Shown: positions 3,606 through 22,354 of the stretch, piece after piece
How the letters are laid out: every line of letters begins with the position of its first letter
Numbering within the stretch: the stretch's first letter is position 1
Virus record (IMG/VR): IMGVR_UViG_3300023174_000047
Coordinates: 1-64,000 of that record
DNA: 64,000 bases
Origin: a virus
Lineage: Duplodnaviria; Caudoviricetes
Direction: 5' to 3' (one strand)
Position numbers and translations under genes: made by a program
The notes under the pieces: generated by a model
The model's input: only the letters and a program-made list of their open reading frames with translations
Database searches by the model: none
Told to the model about the DNA's origin: nothing

Positions 3606-3653
3606 CCCCATGCTGCATGATGCACCCCATGCTGCATGATGCACCCTATGCTG
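3606..3653. repeat. 19-bp tandem repeat CCCCATGCTGCATGATGCA x2.5
   Basis: Copies start at 3606, 3625 and (partial) 3644. Confidence 0.85.
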
Positions 3654-3920
3654 CCGTTGCATATAGTCCGCACCTCAAACCACACCGCACATGTTTGCAT
3701 CAGTTCCACATGAACGCCACATCCCCTTGTTATCATGAGAACATCGCGAGTAGATGTTCCCCATGTGGAGCTGAGAACACCGCATGCAGATGCTGAGCTC
3801 ACTTGCTCAATGCACCCCCGTGCAGTCCATGCAAAGGCCTCAGGCCAAGAGACAAACAGATGGTGTACAGAAATTTCAATTTTATAGTGGATCATCTGCA
3901 AAGAGCATTTATATTAACAC

Positions 3921-4145
3921 ATGACAAAAAACAAACGACTCAAGATCAATCGTGAATGGTATAGCAACAAGAATGTGCGGCCCAAGCTGTTCAATGTCAC
4001 AATGGCACGTGACTCCAATGGCACATACCGCATTGTGGAGGGGGTGGTGGAAGCTGTAGTTAATCAGCACGAGTCGCGCATTCAAACTGTGGATGCTCGC
4101 GACCTGGCTCACGACCTCAAGCGCGGCAGGGTGTTTGCGCTATAA
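3921..4145 (+). CDS. hypothetical protein (74 aa)
   Basis: ORF with normal composition, followed by a terminator. Confidence 0.7.
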   Translation: MTKNKRLKINREWYSNKNVRPKLFNVTMARDSNGTYRIVEGVVEAVVNQHESRIQTVDARDLAHDLKRGRVFAL

Positions 4146-4182
4146 TGCAATGCAAGTAGTGGGTTAGCTAGAAAGGCAGCAG

Positions 4183-4228
4183 GAGCGGAACTGTGTGGCA
4201 CAATGCTGCATAGTTCCGCTCTCTTTTT
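4183..4228 (+). terminator. Rho-independent terminator
   Basis: GAGCGGAACT...AGTTCCGCTC stem (extends inward with G-U pairs) followed by TCTTTTT. Confidence 0.75.
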
Positions 4229-4237
4229 ATTATATAC

Positions 4238-4266
4238 ATTATAGCATCTATATTATGGCATGTCAA
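4238..4266 (-). promoter_or_regulatory. Perfect consensus sigma70 promoter, leftward (TTGACA-N17-TATAAT)
   Basis: Plus-strand TGTCAA 4261-4266 and ATTATA 4238-4243. Confidence 0.75.
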
Positions 4267-4394
4267 CTGTATAATTATAATACTTAAAAAAGATCAGGTT
4301 CACTTAGAATTTTTTCGCTGCTCTGCTTATGCACTATTTGTGTGGAACTATGCAGCATTGTGCAGCATTGTGCAGCACTCTTTTTATTATATAC

Positions 4395-14809: not shown

Positions 14810-17248
14810 TTATATACAATTAGATAAACACATTTTTAGTAAAAAACTTTCAAAACTACACAAAATAAACTTTTCATTTTGCATTGTGTAATCTTTTATT
14901 TTATTAGGGTTAATAAGAATTTGCCCGCCCCTACTAGAAGCCTGTGGGTCAATTTCTTCCTTAACTTTTTTTATTTTTGTTATGTTGCCGTCGTCGTTAA
15001 ATATAAATCTAAACATACCTGCGCCCAACTTTTCTGCAGCTTCTCCAGAGATACCTTTTCTTCCACGTGATCTTGTCTGACCAACATAACTATTAAAATG
15101 AAGTATCGGCATAGGCGGATTAATTTCTAATGAATCACCTATTTTACTGTTTAAAATAAACGCAGTTAATGAGTTATTAATTTCTCTATCTGCTCTATCT
15201 GCTCTATCTGCTCTATCTGCTCTATCTGCTCTATCTACATTGCCGAGTGGTTCGTTTGTAGATTGATGAATATTACTTTGTATATTTGCATCACTATTTA
15301 TAGTGGCTTTTGTTGCATAAAGTATACCGCCCATGTTTTTTGTTTCAAATTTAAACATTCTGAGCGTCAAGTTGTGCTTAGAAATTTGCGATCGTATGCC
15401 ATCCATTGTGGCTGGCTTTTCAAATACAAAACTTTCTCCCTGCGCTGCGTTTTCTCCCTGCGCTACGGTTCGCAAAAAATTAGCAAATGAGCCGCTTCCT
15501 CTCTTTACATATTTTACTATGCACGCCTGATCTCTACAAACTGTGCTATCTTGCGCATAAAACACAAAATTAGAGGCGCTGAGGTCTGCCTTAATCATAG
15601 CTTGTCTTAACACCTGCACAGTTGGCAATTTATTACAGTATTCACTAAGGTCTATAATATTGTCGCCACTCAGCTTTTGCATTTCCTGTTTTATTACAGT
15701 CATGCGTTTTCTGACTGGTATAGACTCTTCTGTTTTTGTTGCTTTTGTTACCCAAACTATACCATCTTCTTTTTCTGTCTCGAGCTTAACTTGATAAGTC
15801 AAATCATTATGAGATAGTGTAGCTGATACAGTCGCTTTTTTACTTTTTGGCTTGAAAATATAAGTATCACCTGGCCTAGATTTTTTTAAAAAATCAGCAA
15901 ATGAGCCACTTCCTTTCTCTATATATTTTATAATGCAGTCTTGATTATCGCAAGGTGTTTTATTTTCTGTGTAAAACACAAAATCATGGGCACTTAATTT
16001 TGCTTTTTGTAAAAAATATCTAAATCGCGATATAACTGGCAACTCATCATCATAATAATCACTAAGATCTATATATTTATCATCTGTCAAATTTTTCATT
16101 TGAGTTTTTAACATTGTTTGTCTAGAAAGTAGGTCTGTTATGTATGTTTTTAATTTGCCTATTTTTTTATTTAAATATTCTGATATCTCATCATTATATT
16201 CTTTATTTTTTATTCTCTTGAGCATATAAGCTAATAACTCATTTAACTTATACTCTTGAATATTTTTGCCATAGTTTTTACTATCAATAGCTAAAAAGTC
16301 TATTAATCTAAATAAAGCAGCAAACATATCATTCACCATTCCTGTTGTAAGTTTATTTGTTGCATATTGTTTTTGTTCTTCCTTACTAATTATACCGCTG
16401 CCTTTTAAAAAAACAAATGATGCCATCGGCATATTTTTGCCTGTATATGATGTATATGCAATTTCATAATCGTTTAGTTTTTTGCTAAGTTCTTTATAAA
16501 ATTCAGCAATTTTTGAATATGAAAATAAAACACTCAAGGCAGCCCTTTTGAAATTGCTTTTGATTTGATCTTTATAATCTTTTCTTTCAATAAGCTTCTG
16601 ATCGTATAATGTATCAAAACTTTTCCATATTTTATTAGCTGTTTGTATTATTTCGTAATCAAATTCATCAGAATTTACTTCATCAAAACCATACAGCGCC
16701 CCGCCTTTATCTAAAGATTTTGCCTGTGCTTTGTCTGCATTTGCATCTACTTTTGTTGTACCTCTCTGTGAAACAACAATAACAAATGATTTTAAATTTT
16801 TCATTGCTGCTAGCTTTTCAGCAAATTCTGGAAGCTTAGTAATTGTTGCAACTCCATCAAAATCTATATGTGTTAAATTATCTATTTCTTTTGCTTTATC
16901 TATAATATCTGCTTGTGAAATTCTACTGGATAAATCTCCATATTTATCTTTCTCCGCGCCTGCTTTCTGCTTAAGACTCTCAGCTGCTTTTTCTTGATTG
17001 TCTACAATGTTTATGTTTTGCATTTTAAACCCTAATTCCAACCACTGTTCTACATGCCTTTCTAAACCACCGCTTTCACCTACCACACCCAAAACAGCCT
17101 CATTTGCACCGCGCTCTGGAAAAGCGCTTTTTATAAGTTTATTCTCCCATTCAATAACTTTTCTCTTTCTGTTGTGGTCAGTGGGTGTTACAGAAAAATC
17201 AGCCGCTTCTGCTAAAAGCTCTTTATAAACTTGCTCAAACGTAATCAT
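14810..17248 (-). CDS. 812-aa protein: N-terminal Rossmann/SAM-MTase-like domain, two internal ~100-aa repeats, (DRA)n tract
   Basis: VLGVVGESG / INIVDN / ISQADI / THIDFDG; repeated IDLS.Y...LP...FVFY....C..Q.CI.KY...GSGSFA.FL; leader MITFEQVYKELLAE. Confidence 0.75.
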   Translation of the reverse strand: MITFEQVYKELLAEAADFSVTPTDHNRKRKVIEWENKLIKSAFPERGANEAVLGVVGESGGLERHVEQWLELGFKMQNINIVDNQEKAAESLKQKAGAEKDKYGDLSSRISQADIIDKAKEIDNLTHIDFDGVATITKLPEFAEKLAAMKNLKSFVIVVSQRGTTKVDANADKAQAKSLDKGGALYGFDEVNSDEFDYEIIQTANKIWKSFDTLYDQKLIERKDYKDQIKSNFKRAALSVLFSYSKIAEFYKELSKKLNDYEIAYTSYTGKNMPMASFVFLKGSGIISKEEQKQYATNKLTTGMVNDMFAALFRLIDFLAIDSKNYGKNIQEYKLNELLAYMLKRIKNKEYNDEISEYLNKKIGKLKTYITDLLSRQTMLKTQMKNLTDDKYIDLSDYYDDELPVISRFRYFLQKAKLSAHDFVFYTENKTPCDNQDCIIKYIEKGSGSFADFLKKSRPGDTYIFKPKSKKATVSATLSHNDLTYQVKLETEKEDGIVWVTKATKTEESIPVRKRMTVIKQEMQKLSGDNIIDLSEYCNKLPTVQVLRQAMIKADLSASNFVFYAQDSTVCRDQACIVKYVKRGSGSFANFLRTVAQGENAAQGESFVFEKPATMDGIRSQISKHNLTLRMFKFETKNMGGILYATKATINSDANIQSNIHQSTNEPLGNVDRADRADRADRADRADREINNSLTAFILNSKIGDSLEINPPMPILHFNSYVGQTRSRGRKGISGEAAEKLGAGMFRFIFNDDGNITKIKKVKEEIDPQASSRGGQILINPNKIKDYTMQNEKFILCSFESFLLKMCLSNCI

Positions 17249-17645: not shown

Positions 17646-17748
17646 ATATTCTATTTAATTACTTTTAGTTGATTTATATATTTTTGCATGCATTATATAA
17701 ATATAAAAGCTGAACAAACAGCATAGTTGATCTTTGATATTTAAAATT

Positions 17749-18194
17749 GGGGGTGCACTGGTTTCGATTCAATTAATTGACTCAAATGTGCACGCAGAGG
17801 CAGGCTAGCTAACCTCTATAAAAGCAAGTCAAAACAAAATAAACGCAGAAGACGCACACGTCGAAGCCCTCTTGGCACAAGCAGAATACATCTTCAACAA
17901 TGCTGACGAATTCGTCACCGCAGACGTTGAAGAAATGATGTTTGTCTAAGCAAAAACAATGTTGGATCCCATTAAAGACATTGAGGTAAAGCAATGGGTA
18001 GAGCTGAACGATGCATGCTTTTAAATCAAACATCGGGGTAACTTCAGACCCTTCTCTGAAGTAGGTAGGCTTTAAAACTTAGGTTGATGCGCCGTGCAAA
18101 CCTTTTGCCAATGAAATTGCAAATGCATCTAAGCATGTAGAGCATTTGATGTGACTAATTGAACACTGGGGTTCGACTCCCCACACCTCCACCA
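17749..18194 (+). ncRNA. ssrA: tmRNA
   Basis: 5' GGGGGTG..TGGTTTCGA; 3' GGGGTTCGACTCCCC-ACACCTCC-ACCA with G3:U70; ATAAAC|GCA resume at 17845; tag AEDAHVEALLAQAEYIFNNADEFVTADVEEMMFV*. Confidence 0.93.
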
Positions 18195-18723: not shown

Positions 18724-18996
18724 ATGCAATTTGACGATTTATACCAAAAGCTCATGGAAGCACCTACAACTGCTCCAGCTCCTATAAGAACGCCTGCACC
18801 TGTGAGAGTGCCAACACCCTCTAAACCGTCTCAACCCAGCCGTCCAAGCTGGATACCAAAGCCAGATACAAAAACAAAGCCAAAAGCATTGGATATGTCT
18901 CAGGAAGACGAAGAAGGTGCAGATGATGACATCATCAATCATGATTTAAGAGTAGCAAAAAAGAGAAAATTTAAAAACAATATTTTTGAAAGATGA
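18724..18996 (+). CDS. Pro-rich hypothetical protein, probable internal head protein
   Basis: Leader MQFDDLYQKLME; TAAATA-N5-ATG. Confidence 0.75.
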   Translation: MQFDDLYQKLMEAPTTAPAPIRTPAPVRVPTPSKPSQPSRPSWIPKPDTKTKPKALDMSQEDEEGADDDIINHDLRVAKKRKFKNNIFER

Positions 18997-20192
18997 ATAA
19001 AACTGTAAAACTTGCCCTTGAGGCACTAAACACTGGTGATGTACCGAAAAGATACTTCGATCAGTCCAAGCAACGACTTGCGTCTAGTCCACAAGATATA
19101 GAAGACATCTTGCCTAGTTCAGGTAATGAAGACAGGTTCATTGAAAATTTATCAAGTGAGGGCTATAGACTAGTAGTCAAGAAGCTTGCCAATTACTTGA
19201 ATCTATCAATTGCGGATCTAATGACTAGATATACGAGTATATATTCTTTCATTGCGGTTGTAATGCAAACCATGGAGCAAATAAAGCAAATCGAATCTGC
19301 ACACAAGCAAGAACTCGAAAAACTTGCACTTCAAGTTGTGTTTGATCTGCCAGAGTTTGCGCAATTTAAGAAGCTTTATGAACAAGGCATTTTAAAGCTT
19401 GATATTAAGCTAGGGCCAGCAGATTTGCAGAATGCAAAAACAATGGATGATATTGAAGAAGATATTGAAGAGCAGCAAGAAAATATCATTGAGAACGTTG
19501 GCATGAACATTGAAGCTGATCCAGATGGCAAGCTTAAAAGAGTATTTCATAACTACATTACTCAAGGCAATGCGGTGCATAAGAGCTTTTTGTTTAATCT
19601 TGTAAAAGAGGAATTAGACAACATTGATGAAACACTGACAGTAAAGTATGGTCTGTTTATGTCCATTGTTCATGTGTTGTATTATGGTACGCCATATGCA
19701 GCCGGTGGCATGCTCAAGGACGCAGGAATAGGTAGCAGTGAAAACTTAGAAAACGATACAATTAAAATTCGTGGTGTTGTTTTTCCTGTGCTTGTGCATG
19801 AAATTGTCAAAGGATTGTTTGAATATCTCGGAAAGGACATCTCACAGGAAGCAGAAGCTTCTGAGACTCTGGAGGGTGAATATATGCCACTCATGGCAGG
19901 CCCAGAATTGTTTAGCAAACTAAATGCAATGATTCCGCGCAACAAAATTGAGTTCCTTCCAATTATCTATAGATTCTTGCTAAAACGTTCACCTGAAGAA
20001 ATCAAGCAAGTAATTGCAAACTCACCACAAGGCAAGCAAGTTATTAATTCCATCATCGTACAGGCAGAAGCTGCTGCATCTGAAGAAGGTGAAGACTATA
20101 ATGAAGGTGGTTATGAGGACGACGGCGGCTATGAAGATGAAGGTGGCGGTGAAGAAGACAATGACCCATACAATCTTTACGGCGGCAATTAA
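18993..20192 (+). CDS. hypothetical protein (399 aa) with HExxK motif and acidic tail
   Basis: FPVLVHEIVKGLFE. Confidence 0.8.
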   Translation: MNKTVKLALEALNTGDVPKRYFDQSKQRLASSPQDIEDILPSSGNEDRFIENLSSEGYRLVVKKLANYLNLSIADLMTRYTSIYSFIAVVMQTMEQIKQIESAHKQELEKLALQVVFDLPEFAQFKKLYEQGILKLDIKLGPADLQNAKTMDDIEEDIEEQQENIIENVGMNIEADPDGKLKRVFHNYITQGNAVHKSFLFNLVKEELDNIDETLTVKYGLFMSIVHVLYYGTPYAAGGMLKDAGIGSSENLENDTIKIRGVVFPVLVHEIVKGLFEYLGKDISQEAEASETLEGEYMPLMAGPELFSKLNAMIPRNKIEFLPIIYRFLLKRSPEEIKQVIANSPQGKQVINSIIVQAEAAASEEGEDYNEGGYEDDGGYEDEGGGEEDNDPYNLYGGN

Positions 20193-20241
20193 AAGGTAAA
20201 ATAAGTTATTGAAAACTCTCCCTGTGCATATAAATAAATGC

Positions 20242-20700
20242 ACAGAAAAAACATGAACGCTAATTTCACTTGTAACCATTATAGCGGGGCATATAATATG
20301 CCACCGCGAGGTTACAAGTGGCCTGTCTGTCAGTCCTTGAAACAAAGTTAATTTTCAAAATAATTGAAAAACTAAGTTGAAAGATAAGAATAAGACGGCA
20401 TATTAAGATATATAACAAAAGCGGTTCATGACGAGGGATGACCATAACAGCCCAAGAGTTCGCAGAATGCGACGTAAAGCCAAAAGCTGACAGTGTAGAT
20501 TTACGCATATAGGTTTGTAGTGTAGCGCATTGCGCGCAAAGTTCCCTGGTGTAGCCACCGAAAACTACTAATTTAACATCTCAATGACTAACCATTTTAT
20601 AAGCATGTCTTTATCTCAAAGCTCAAAGCTCAAAGCCATCAGACTCTTAAAGTAATAAAGCCTAATCGTCGTGGTTAATCGATTGCTTGCAATTAATTTC
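20242..20700 (+). ncRNA. candidate large structured ncRNA heading the tRNA array
   Basis: ORF-free; long-range helices 20267-77/20310-20 (11 bp), 20252-58/20423-29, 20327-33/20486-92, 20472-77/20499-504; TATAAATA at 20229. Confidence 0.55.
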
Positions 20701-20705
20701 AATTA

Positions 20706-20796
20706 GGAAGAATGGCTGAGTCTGGCTTAAGGCGGTGCACTTGAAATGCGCAGAGGTCTAAAGCCTCCGTGAGTTCGAATCTCACTTCTTCCTCCA
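20706..20796 (+). tRNA. tRNA-Ser(TGA)
   Basis: Type II cloverleaf, GTGCA-CTTGAAA-TGCGC, CCA. Confidence 0.92.
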
Positions 20797-20888: not shown

Positions 20889-20953
20889 CTTTAATAATAA
20901 TCATATCAATACATTCTCGTGCAGGGCAAAGATATTTTCTATAAATTTCAAAA

Positions 20954-20995
20954 GCGGTAGTAGCTCAATTGACAAGAGCGCCTTCCTTCCAAGTA
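20954..20995 (+). pseudogene. 5' half of a tRNA-Gly(TCC)
   Basis: GCGGTAG-TA-GCTC..GAGC-G-CCTTC-CTTCCAA-GTAG, no T arm or 3' acceptor strand. Confidence 0.55.
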
Positions 20996-21005
20996 GAAAA
21001 ATTTC

Positions 21006-21163: not shown

Positions 21164-21169
21164 ATTTAT

Positions 21170-21258
21170 GGAGAGTTAACTAGCCGAGGCGCTAGAGATG
21201 TTTGCTAAACATCATGCACTTCCCTAAGAGGTGTGCGGGGCAGGACCGCAGCTCTCCT
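21170..21258 (+). tRNA. tRNA-Ser(GCT), atypical T-loop, no encoded CCA
   Basis: GATGT-TTGCTAA-ACATC, long V arm, T-loop GGCAGGA. Confidence 0.8.
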
Positions 21259-21263
21259 CTCTT

Positions 21264-21343
21264 TTGTAGAGCAGCAATGCTAGTGTGTGGCCGAAAGACT
21301 GATGGTGTGGCGTTTCGGGTAAAACCTCGCAACCATCCTACAA
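21264..21343 (+). ncRNA. candidate ~80-nt multibranched RNA
   Basis: TTGTAG/CTACAA closing stem, AGCA-GCAA-TGCT, GATGGT/ACCATC. Confidence 0.4.
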
Positions 21344-21351
21344 TTTTAAAA

Positions 21352-21544: not shown

Positions 21545-22354
21545 ATGAACGTCATTTATAATGTTGAGCAATACAATCAAAGCAAAAGCATAAACGCTAA
21601 AATAGGTGTATTGTGTCCATGTTGTACCAATTGGTTTGAAACGACTAGACTGCTGTTACAGCGAGCGTTAAAGTCCAGCAGACTAAAATTTTGCTCTATA
21701 GAATGTGCAAATAAATTTCAATCAGAAAAAATACAGCTTGAATGTGTTTTCTGCAAACAACAAATAGAGAGAGTTGCAAGTCAACTTAAAAGAGTGAAAC
21801 ATGCATTTTGTAATCACTCTTGTGCAGCGCAATTTAACAACAGCTTAAGACCCAAAAAGTTAAAACAACTAAAGAAAGCTAAACCTATAGCAATAGTTGT
21901 TGAACACACTTGCATTAATTGTGGAAAAACATCCATTGTTTCTGCTCATGCTAGTCTCAAAAAGAAATTTTGTTCTGGCAGTTGCAGAAACGTAATTAAT
22001 AATAAAACCATAAGAGGTACACGCTCTAAAGTAGAGAAAGAGTTTGAAGTAGCAATCAAAGCAAATTTTCCAGATTTGAAGTTTAATTGCAATGACAGAC
22101 AAATTCTTGATGGTTTAGAGCTTGATTTTTACTTTCCTGAAATTAAAATAGCAATAGAATTTAACGGTATTTGGCATTTAAAACCAATACGTGGAGAAGA
22201 ACTTTTATCAAAATACAAACAAAGAGATGAACACAAAAAACGTTTATGTGAAGAAAAAAATATCAAACTTTTAGTGCTTTGTGATGAAGTTAGTTCCAAC
22301 AAATCAATTGATGAGCAAGTACACAAAGCAATTACGTTTTTAAAACAATTTTAA
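21545..22354 (+). CDS. putative free-standing homing endonuclease (multiple CxxC/treble-clef modules + Vsr/DUF559-like PD-(D/E)xK domain)
   Basis: CPCC, CS.EC, CVFC, C.HSC, CINC, CSGSC; ELDFYFPEIKIAIEFNGIWH; inserted in the tRNA array. Confidence 0.75.
   Translation: MNVIYNVEQYNQSKSINAKIGVLCPCCTNWFETTRLLLQRALKSSRLKFCSIECANKFQSEKIQLECVFCKQQIERVASQLKRVKHAFCNHSCAAQFNNSLRPKKLKQLKKAKPIAIVVEHTCINCGKTSIVSAHASLKKKFCSGSCRNVINNKTIRGTRSKVEKEFEVAIKANFPDLKFNCNDRQILDGLELDFYFPEIKIAIEFNGIWHLKPIRGEELLSKYKQRDEHKKRLCEEKNIKLLVLCDEVSSNKSIDEQVHKAITFLKQF

Follow-up and report, generated by a model that had tools for sequence, protein, structure and literature searches.

The region from position 20242 to 20575 on the plus strand of the window, i.e. 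of the whole stretch of 64,000 nt analysed here, is a conserved multi-domain structured RNA of about 335 nt, which lies outside Rfam 15. We favour, with a probability of roughly 0.55, its interpretation as a stable accessory RNA which is cut from a tRNA precursor by RNase P and serves as a scaffold presenting a frozen core.

The window represents the first 64 kb of a record of 203,774 bp, which is rated 96% complete in IMG/VR. DNA of this phage is present in freshwater and lake metagenomes of several studies; among the matches listed in the first run search, none of the sequencing runs containing it was recorded as RNA. The RNA element is located between an ORF of 399 amino acids (18993–20192, +), its upstream neighbour, and the gene for tRNA-Ser(TGA) (20706–20796, +), which opens the tRNA island of this genome. 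The 399-aa protein reached no Pfam cut-off, was assigned to no PHROG family and had no homologue among 50,697 cultured-phage records. It is a member of a large phage family with 535 relatives in the IMG/VR pattern matches, in which the motif FPVLVHE is invariant. A complete tmRNA gene (17749–18194, +; Rfam, 105 bits) lies 2 kb upstream of the RNA element and is preceded at 17696–17703 by TATAAATA, the same late-promoter-like motif that precedes the RNA element.

For comparison, 27 metagenomic relatives of the 399-aa protein were gathered and their contigs taken; scans with exact patterns of the core motifs added further loci from IMG/VR and metagenomes. The DNA on the 3' side of the 399-aa gene is conserved (nhmmer E-values from 1e-57 to 1e-35), whereas the protein itself is only 50–67% identical. 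Twelve distinct full-length homologues from five clades of uncultured freshwater phages were obtained (alignment A3), among which locus L021 is more divergent. The order and spacing of all parts of the element are maintained in the 12 homologues, and all of them possess an invariant TAAATA upstream and a tRNA island downstream. The loci found by DNA pattern have a different upstream gene, yet a tRNA array follows every time; the conserved unit is therefore TAAATA, the RNA and the tRNA island. In the pattern scans, the core occurred once per genome and in no other context. The only matches outside the family, in a GC-rich viral coding sequence (L026) and in a coding region of a Bryobacterales genome (L027), were rejected as chance pattern matches. 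Distant relatives of the 399-aa protein (≤ 36% identity, among 80 loci) showed no detectable copy of the RNA, and blastn of the region against the 50,697 cultured-phage records gave no match.

Homology ends near 20575. The spacer which follows (20575–20705, +) is outside the conserved RNA; its 124 nt from 20582 to 20705 show no homology with any relative and occupy the place of the tRNA-Phe and tRNA-Tyr genes of the relatives. In L015, L020, L023 and L024, tRNA-Phe(GAA) directly adjoins the 3' side of the RNA. An earlier reading made from the sequence alone (the sequence-only reading) had drawn the element from 20229 to 20700. The conserved element is real, but since 20582–20705 has no counterpart in any relative, its 3' end lies near 20575, about 125 nt before the end that had been drawn. 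A TAACCA/TGGTTA helix which had been included in that element is found in the sequence, but within 20582–20705, and has no counterpart in the relatives. The spacer also contains three tandem copies of CTCAAAG (20615–20635).

The core comprises 76 nt (20423–20498, +) and consists of GGTTCA, which belongs to the 3' strand of the helix P1, the hairpins Pa (20435–20453, +), Pb (20460–20472, +) and Pc (20477–20489, +), and invariant joining strands. Its mean column identity is 93%, compared to 50–67% for the neighbouring protein of the same relatives. In the core hairpins 95.5% of the cells are paired, versus 23–33% in slid controls. One compensatory double change was observed per hairpin (G-C to A-U in Pa and Pb of L021; C-G to U-A in Pc of L010). 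This covariation consists of single events in two sequences, and it argues for selection on RNA pairing, beyond a DNA site alone. The proposed helix TCGCA/TGCGA recurs in the relatives as TCGC/GCGA (20460–20472).

The core is non-coding, as indicated by a 1-nt deletion in the Pc loop of three lineages and by substitutions that are mostly non-synonymous. A small ORF within the core, beginning at its only ATG (20438), was rejected due to loss of the start in L021, frameshifts and mostly non-synonymous changes, and minus-strand ORFs of 113–115 aa called over the core in L004 and L005 were rejected due to 1-nt indels in the core and differing open extents. A mimicry of 23S rRNA was likewise considered and rejected: the core sequence ACNGCCCAAGAGTTC (20449–20463) is identical at 14 of 15 positions to rrlH 2460–2474, a 23S rRNA gene of E. 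coli. This match is not significant, since 22 of 300 shuffles attained its local alignment score, as did 37 of 400 random phage windows; E. coli genomes searched by blastn gave no match.

The 3' module (20506–20574, +) consists of GGTTTGTA, followed by the hairpin Ha (20525–20528/20534–20537) and then by the helix Hb (20540–20543/20563–20566), which encloses the hairpin Hc (20548–20551/20556–20559). When 14 copies were aligned by MAFFT without guidance, 93% of the cells were paired, and 8 of the 13 pairs are changed on both sides. None of 500 shuffles reached the covariation score, and partners slid by 1–3 columns pair at 32–47%. The outer pair of Hb is A-U in seven copies and G-C in six, in three separate lineages as judged from their placement in the alignment. 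Model R1 of the 3' module gives 66.5 bits at 20506–20574, where the single genomic copy is located. Both the L014 clade and L021 have the module in duplicate, and it seems to be tied to the tRNA array. Hc is identical with the GGTG/CACC helix of the sequence-only reading and recurs in the relatives. Compensatory changes, by which that reading had proposed to judge a structured RNA, were found both in the 3' module and in the core hairpins.

In the 5' domain, P1 is formed by CATGAAC (20252–20258, +), which includes the start codon of a small ORF, and GTTCATG (20424–20430). This helix is predicted in most homologues and would join the 5' domain to the core. The data agree with it but do not prove it, since its 3' strand never varies and the only changes seen are wobble-compatible (L024, L014); G-U pairs, e.g. 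in P1 of L014, occur on the plus strand. The 5' partner of P1 is located after H1, not before it, in L021 and the L014 clade. H1 is a two-part hairpin (20267–20320, +) with an outer helix of 11 bp, CACTTGTAACC/GGTTACAAGTG, and an inner helix GCGG-GGCAT/ATGCC-CCGC. The same two-part shape was found in eight lineages (z from -2.4 to -7.5; window -7.5), with helix sequences that vary from clade to clade and visible compensatory changes. The long segmented arm H2 (20321–20399, +) has the tip TTTTCAA/TTGAAAA (20352–20358 with 20364–20370) and likewise retains its shape in eight lineages (z from -1.4 to -5.2). The sequence of its base helices differs clade by clade, the loop at its tip is AATAA in the window versus AAGATAATT in the relatives, and AAGTTGAA (20375–20382) is invariant.

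Misalignment of the 5' domain between clades limited RNAalifold, applied to the full MAFFT alignment, to the core and the 3' helices. For the whole 477 nt, the advantage in folding over shuffles is modest (plus strand, z -2.7; minus strand, z -3.4), so that folding energy by itself is insufficient for the claim of a structured RNA. The expectation that the helices would surpass shuffled controls was thus borne out strongly for single arms (H1, z -7.5) and only modestly for the whole stretch. H1 with its inner hairpin, CATGAAC/GTTCATG and TTTTCAA/TTGAAAA had all been named in the sequence-only reading, and each of them recurs in the relatives. A pseudoknot of CTGTCAG with CTGACAG can be found in the sequence, but its 5' partner is missing from the relatives, and a CGTAAA/TTTACG helix, also present in the sequence, is specific to the window. 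A long-range helix between the nucleotides after the promoter and GTGTAG at the end of the core seemed to covary by eye but was not supported (matched -4.7 versus mismatched -4.35 kcal/mol). A scan of alignment A3 for further conserved long-range or pseudoknot pairings yielded nothing convincing.

The element is preceded by TATAAATA (20229–20236, +), a motif which resembles T4-type late promoters and whose TAAATA is invariant in 12 of 12 homologues. Thirteen copies of the motif are present in the window, compared to 5.7 expected, and none of 100 shuffles reached 13; one copy is found before the tmRNA and one before the RNA element. TAAATA occurs 5–7 nt upstream of the ATG in 23 ORFs of at least 60 codons, in 14 of them at a distance of exactly 5 nt; examples are found at 17248 (-), 32787, 36156 and 37973. 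By analogy, this spacing fits a T4-type late promoter whose transcripts would begin about 6 nt downstream, and from the knowledge on T4 we infer a start of the RNA at about 20242. With a start about 6 nt past the motif, as known from T4, a large number of late mRNAs would lack a leader; another possibility is that the motif near the ATGs also serves as a translation signal. The promoter motif is enclosed by the inverted repeat TGTGCAT (20223–20229)/ATGCACA (20238–20244) at 20223–20244 (+), and both motif and repeat are located as originally described. Matched upstream and downstream halves of the repeat pair better than mismatched ones (-6.5 versus -3.9 kcal/mol). It is absent from the clades of L023, L014/L015 and L021 and may represent the 3' hairpin of the upstream mRNA.

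The stretch had been regarded as free of ORFs, but an ORF of 37 codons in the 5' domain (20238–20351) with an in-frame ATG at 20253 was overlooked. From this ATG, which belongs to the invariant ATGAAC in P1, the small ORF comprises 32 codons (20253–20351, +) and spans H1 and the 5' strand of H2. A small ORF of 32–51 codons, beginning 13–25 nt after TAAATA, is open in all five clades; clades A–C possess ORFs of 32–37 codons from ATGAAC, and clades D and E other ORFs of 44–51 codons. Shuffles yielded such an ORF in 4–11% of the trials per lineage. The distance from ATGAAC to a GCAAC motif is 80, 83, 86 or 89 nt, i.e. all indels are multiples of three. The encoded peptide shows no periodicity (column entropy 0.83, 0.86 and 0.81 at codon positions 1–3), and pN/pS values of 0.3–1.5 are similar to those of out-of-frame controls; these tests, based on third-position variability and low pN/pS, did not reveal the purifying selection expected of a small-protein gene. 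Judged from these sequence comparisons, the frame apparently stays open without conservation of the peptide.

In the lineages of L007/L008/L009 and L030/L031, a cassette of about 700 bp has taken the precise place of the core, beginning at GGTTCA and stopping just short of the 3' module, and the 5' domain and the 3' module are retained (L007:6436–7140; L030:~3636–4345). The cassette encodes an HNH/DUF968 endonuclease of 190 aa (L007:6566–7138) and is probably a free-standing homing endonuclease aimed at the core sequence of cassette-free phages. Its 3' end bears a separate TATAAATA, located some 20 nt upstream of the 3' module, so that late transcription of the 3' module and the tRNAs is probably preserved. 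The replacement shows that the core is dispensable in nature, as is expected of an accessory function.

No family of Rfam 15 matched the element at the gathering score, nor was any found at E ≤ 10 in a search with 4.2 kb. With 366 nt as query, the sole match at E ≤ 10 was a meaningless 13-bit miRNA on the H1 hairpin. Covariance models of GOLLD, ROOL, RNase P RNA and group I introns, which had been suggested for this check, were all negative at E ≤ 10. The first assignment to a GOLLD/ROOL-class RNA is accordingly not upheld, and the RNA has half the size of these RNAs or less. The sequence-only reading had found no RNase P or ordered group I core motifs either. Its second proposal, a new large structured RNA, holds: the element is conserved, shows compensatory changes and heads a tRNA array. 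ROOL RNA has a size of about 580 nt. GOLLD and ROOL are large structured RNAs of phages and prophages with unexplained function, often located beside tRNA islands, and they assemble into RNA-only multimers (nanocages); GOLLD is often longer than 800 nt and has a conserved and a more variable part, sometimes linked to tRNAs (PMC12286853). The RNA described here also heads a tRNA island, and the phage or prophage location near tRNA genes known from GOLLD was found at all loci. Like GOLLD (RF01998), it combines a conserved part, the core, with variable arms; unlike GOLLD and ROOL (RF03087), it comprises only about 335 nt, has other helices and sequences and a conserved ORF, and matches neither model. 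A catalogue of about 8,500 candidate RNAs obtained from IMG/VR in 2023 could include part of this RNA (PMC10690425).

RNase P RNA (RF00010, RF00011), in which the conserved regions CR-I and CR-V form P4, gave no covariance-model match at E ≤ 10, and its domain order does not fit. By eye, GAGGGATGACC resembles GAGGAAAGUCC, which we take to be CR-I of RNase P RNA, at 8 of 11 positions. The model of group I introns (RF00028) did not match either; flanking exons are absent, and the element runs from a promoter motif to an intact tRNA. The tRNA-like domain and the tag frame of tmRNA (RF00023) are absent from 20229–20700, and the separate tmRNA gene is complete. The non-tRNA stable RNAs of the T4 tRNA cluster (species 1 and 2, RNA C and RNA D) are co-transcribed with tRNAs and freed by tRNA-processing enzymes. 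Compared by description, the RNA found here belongs to a cluster of similar type, and its phage uses TATAAATA motifs; however, the T4 RNAs have about 120–140 nt and are located downstream of the tRNAs, whereas this RNA of about 335 nt is located at the head.

Contigs of 240–413 nt bearing the core, with two differences, were detected in three metatranscriptome libraries of three studies; in their flanking sequence they agree with relatives, the L014 type among them. This is a hint at expression rather than proof of it: transcript ends are not visible in contigs, carry-over of DNA is possible, and one of the contigs extends upstream of the promoter.

According to the favoured reading, transcription would begin about 6 nt past TATAAATA and continue into the tRNAs, and RNase P, by cutting where the next tRNA begins, would free the 3' end of the RNA. 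The peripheral arms, i.e. H1, H2 and the 3' module, would form a scaffold displaying the invariant core, which would be the working site and might either catalyse a reaction or bind a partner (protein, RNA or ligand). The RNA would act in trans, would be accessory and non-essential, and would be linked to translation or tRNA biology, in the same niche as GOLLD and ROOL. The small ORF, open in all clades, is easier to reconcile with a leader that is translated and acts in cis than with a purely non-coding RNA acting in trans. Furthermore, the modules are partly independent in their behaviour: since the 3' module is duplicated in two clades and outlasts the loss of the core, the element may be several RNAs and not one.

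The main rival explanation, possible though clearly less favoured, regards the element as a leader which is translated and acts in cis on the tRNA island, i.e. a translation-sensing device similar to an attenuator. Ribosomes on the short ORF, or their stalling, would decide on the folding of P1 and the core and thereby on how the downstream tRNAs are transcribed or processed, or how stable they are. Such a leader would account for an ORF at a similar distance from TAAATA in five clades (chance 0.04–0.11 per lineage) and for the indels in multiples of three; an open frame with an unconserved peptide is the pattern expected if translating as such is important, irrespective of the product. The start codon is located inside P1, and the element is always in cis to the tRNA array. 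As in the trpL, pheL and hisL attenuators, a short ORF with an unconserved peptide is part of a structured leader in which translation would compete with helices, and the leader ORF is kept open across the relatives. Unlike in these systems, no U-tract terminator hairpin and no regulatory codon run is present, tRNAs are located downstream and the invariant core is large. No intrinsic terminator with antiterminator was detected in or just after the element, runs of a single codon as in classic leader peptides are lacking, and the core and the 3' module are more elaborate than simple attenuation requires. In addition, the ORF statistics are derived from few independent lineages, and other frames of the region also have long open stretches. 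A more specific and rather doubtful form of this idea is a translation-sensing switch: since the start codon is half of P1, ribosome traffic on the leader ORF would decide on the folding of the 76-nt core. The phage would then gauge ribosomes and charged tRNA late in infection, e.g. after an attack on tRNAs by the host, and tune the production or maturation of its own tRNAs. Just as conceivable is a variant in which the core may work on the unusual phage tRNAs as a new ribozyme or RNP centre.

It is unlikely that the region is no single large RNA and instead strings together independent small units: the gene of a small protein, a core that is mobile or conserved at the DNA level (e.g. as a homing-endonuclease target held identical by gene conversion), and a separate leader module of the pre-tRNA. 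The duplication of the 3' module in the L014 clade and L021, its persistence without the core, and the position of H1 outside P1 in the L014 clade would agree with separate units, as would the exact substitution of the core by the HNH cassette, because homing endonucleases favour highly conserved targets. However, the order and spacing of the parts are constant in 12 homologues, P1 links the 5' domain with the core, the core hairpins carry compensatory changes, and the core is found as a single copy in this context only. A divergent member of GOLLD, ROOL, RNase P RNA, group I introns or tmRNA is very improbable: the niche beside phage tRNAs is that of GOLLD and ROOL (PMC12286853), but no Rfam 15 model matched at E ≤ 10, even with 366 nt as query. 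The size is near that of bacterial RNase P RNA, to which the resemblance to CR-I may be added; the domain order is unlike that of RNase P, a separate tmRNA is encoded at 17749–18194 and there are no exons of an intron. Least probable of all are chance hairpins in an ordinary promoter and spacer. Such an origin would be in line with the z of only -2.7 for the full-length fold and with several initially proposed helices which are not conserved, but it is contradicted by the conservation of the core, which is far above that of the neighbouring protein gene, by the covariation, which exceeds all controls, and by the constant shapes of H1 and H2.

Large, intricate RNAs of unexplained function are rare, and those which are understood, such as the ribosome and RNase P, perform fundamental chemistry or assembly. 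A third unrelated RNA beside phage tRNAs would show that the niche, and not one family, matters. Because it is smaller than GOLLD and ROOL and has a frozen core of 76 nt, this RNA may be easier to study, and the lineage carrying the HNH gene in place of the core is a natural knock-out. The conserved leader ORF raises the idea that the tRNA supply of the phage may be coupled to translation.

Several observations were made on the tRNA genes themselves. In the tRNA-Phe(GAA) and tRNA-Tyr(GTA) which follow the RNA in the relatives, the T loop is unusual (AGCGTTA where TTCRANY would be expected), and the D loop lacks GG (L004:6622–6700, L003, L010; L015:4575–4746; L023:4566–4640; L024:3938–4012). 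These phage tRNAs, which ARAGORN overlooked at some loci, have a non-canonical elbow. Within the tRNA array of the window, an ORF of 269 aa (21545–22354, +) matches PHROGs of HNH/homing endonucleases (phrog_559, E 3e-21). Two further sites not called by ARAGORN were noticed by eye: a possible tRNA-Gly-like 5' half just before tRNA-Gly(TCC) (20940–21005), and, within 21164–21351, a possible class II tRNA (~21169–21260) with the anticodon loop TTGCTAA (Ser GCT).
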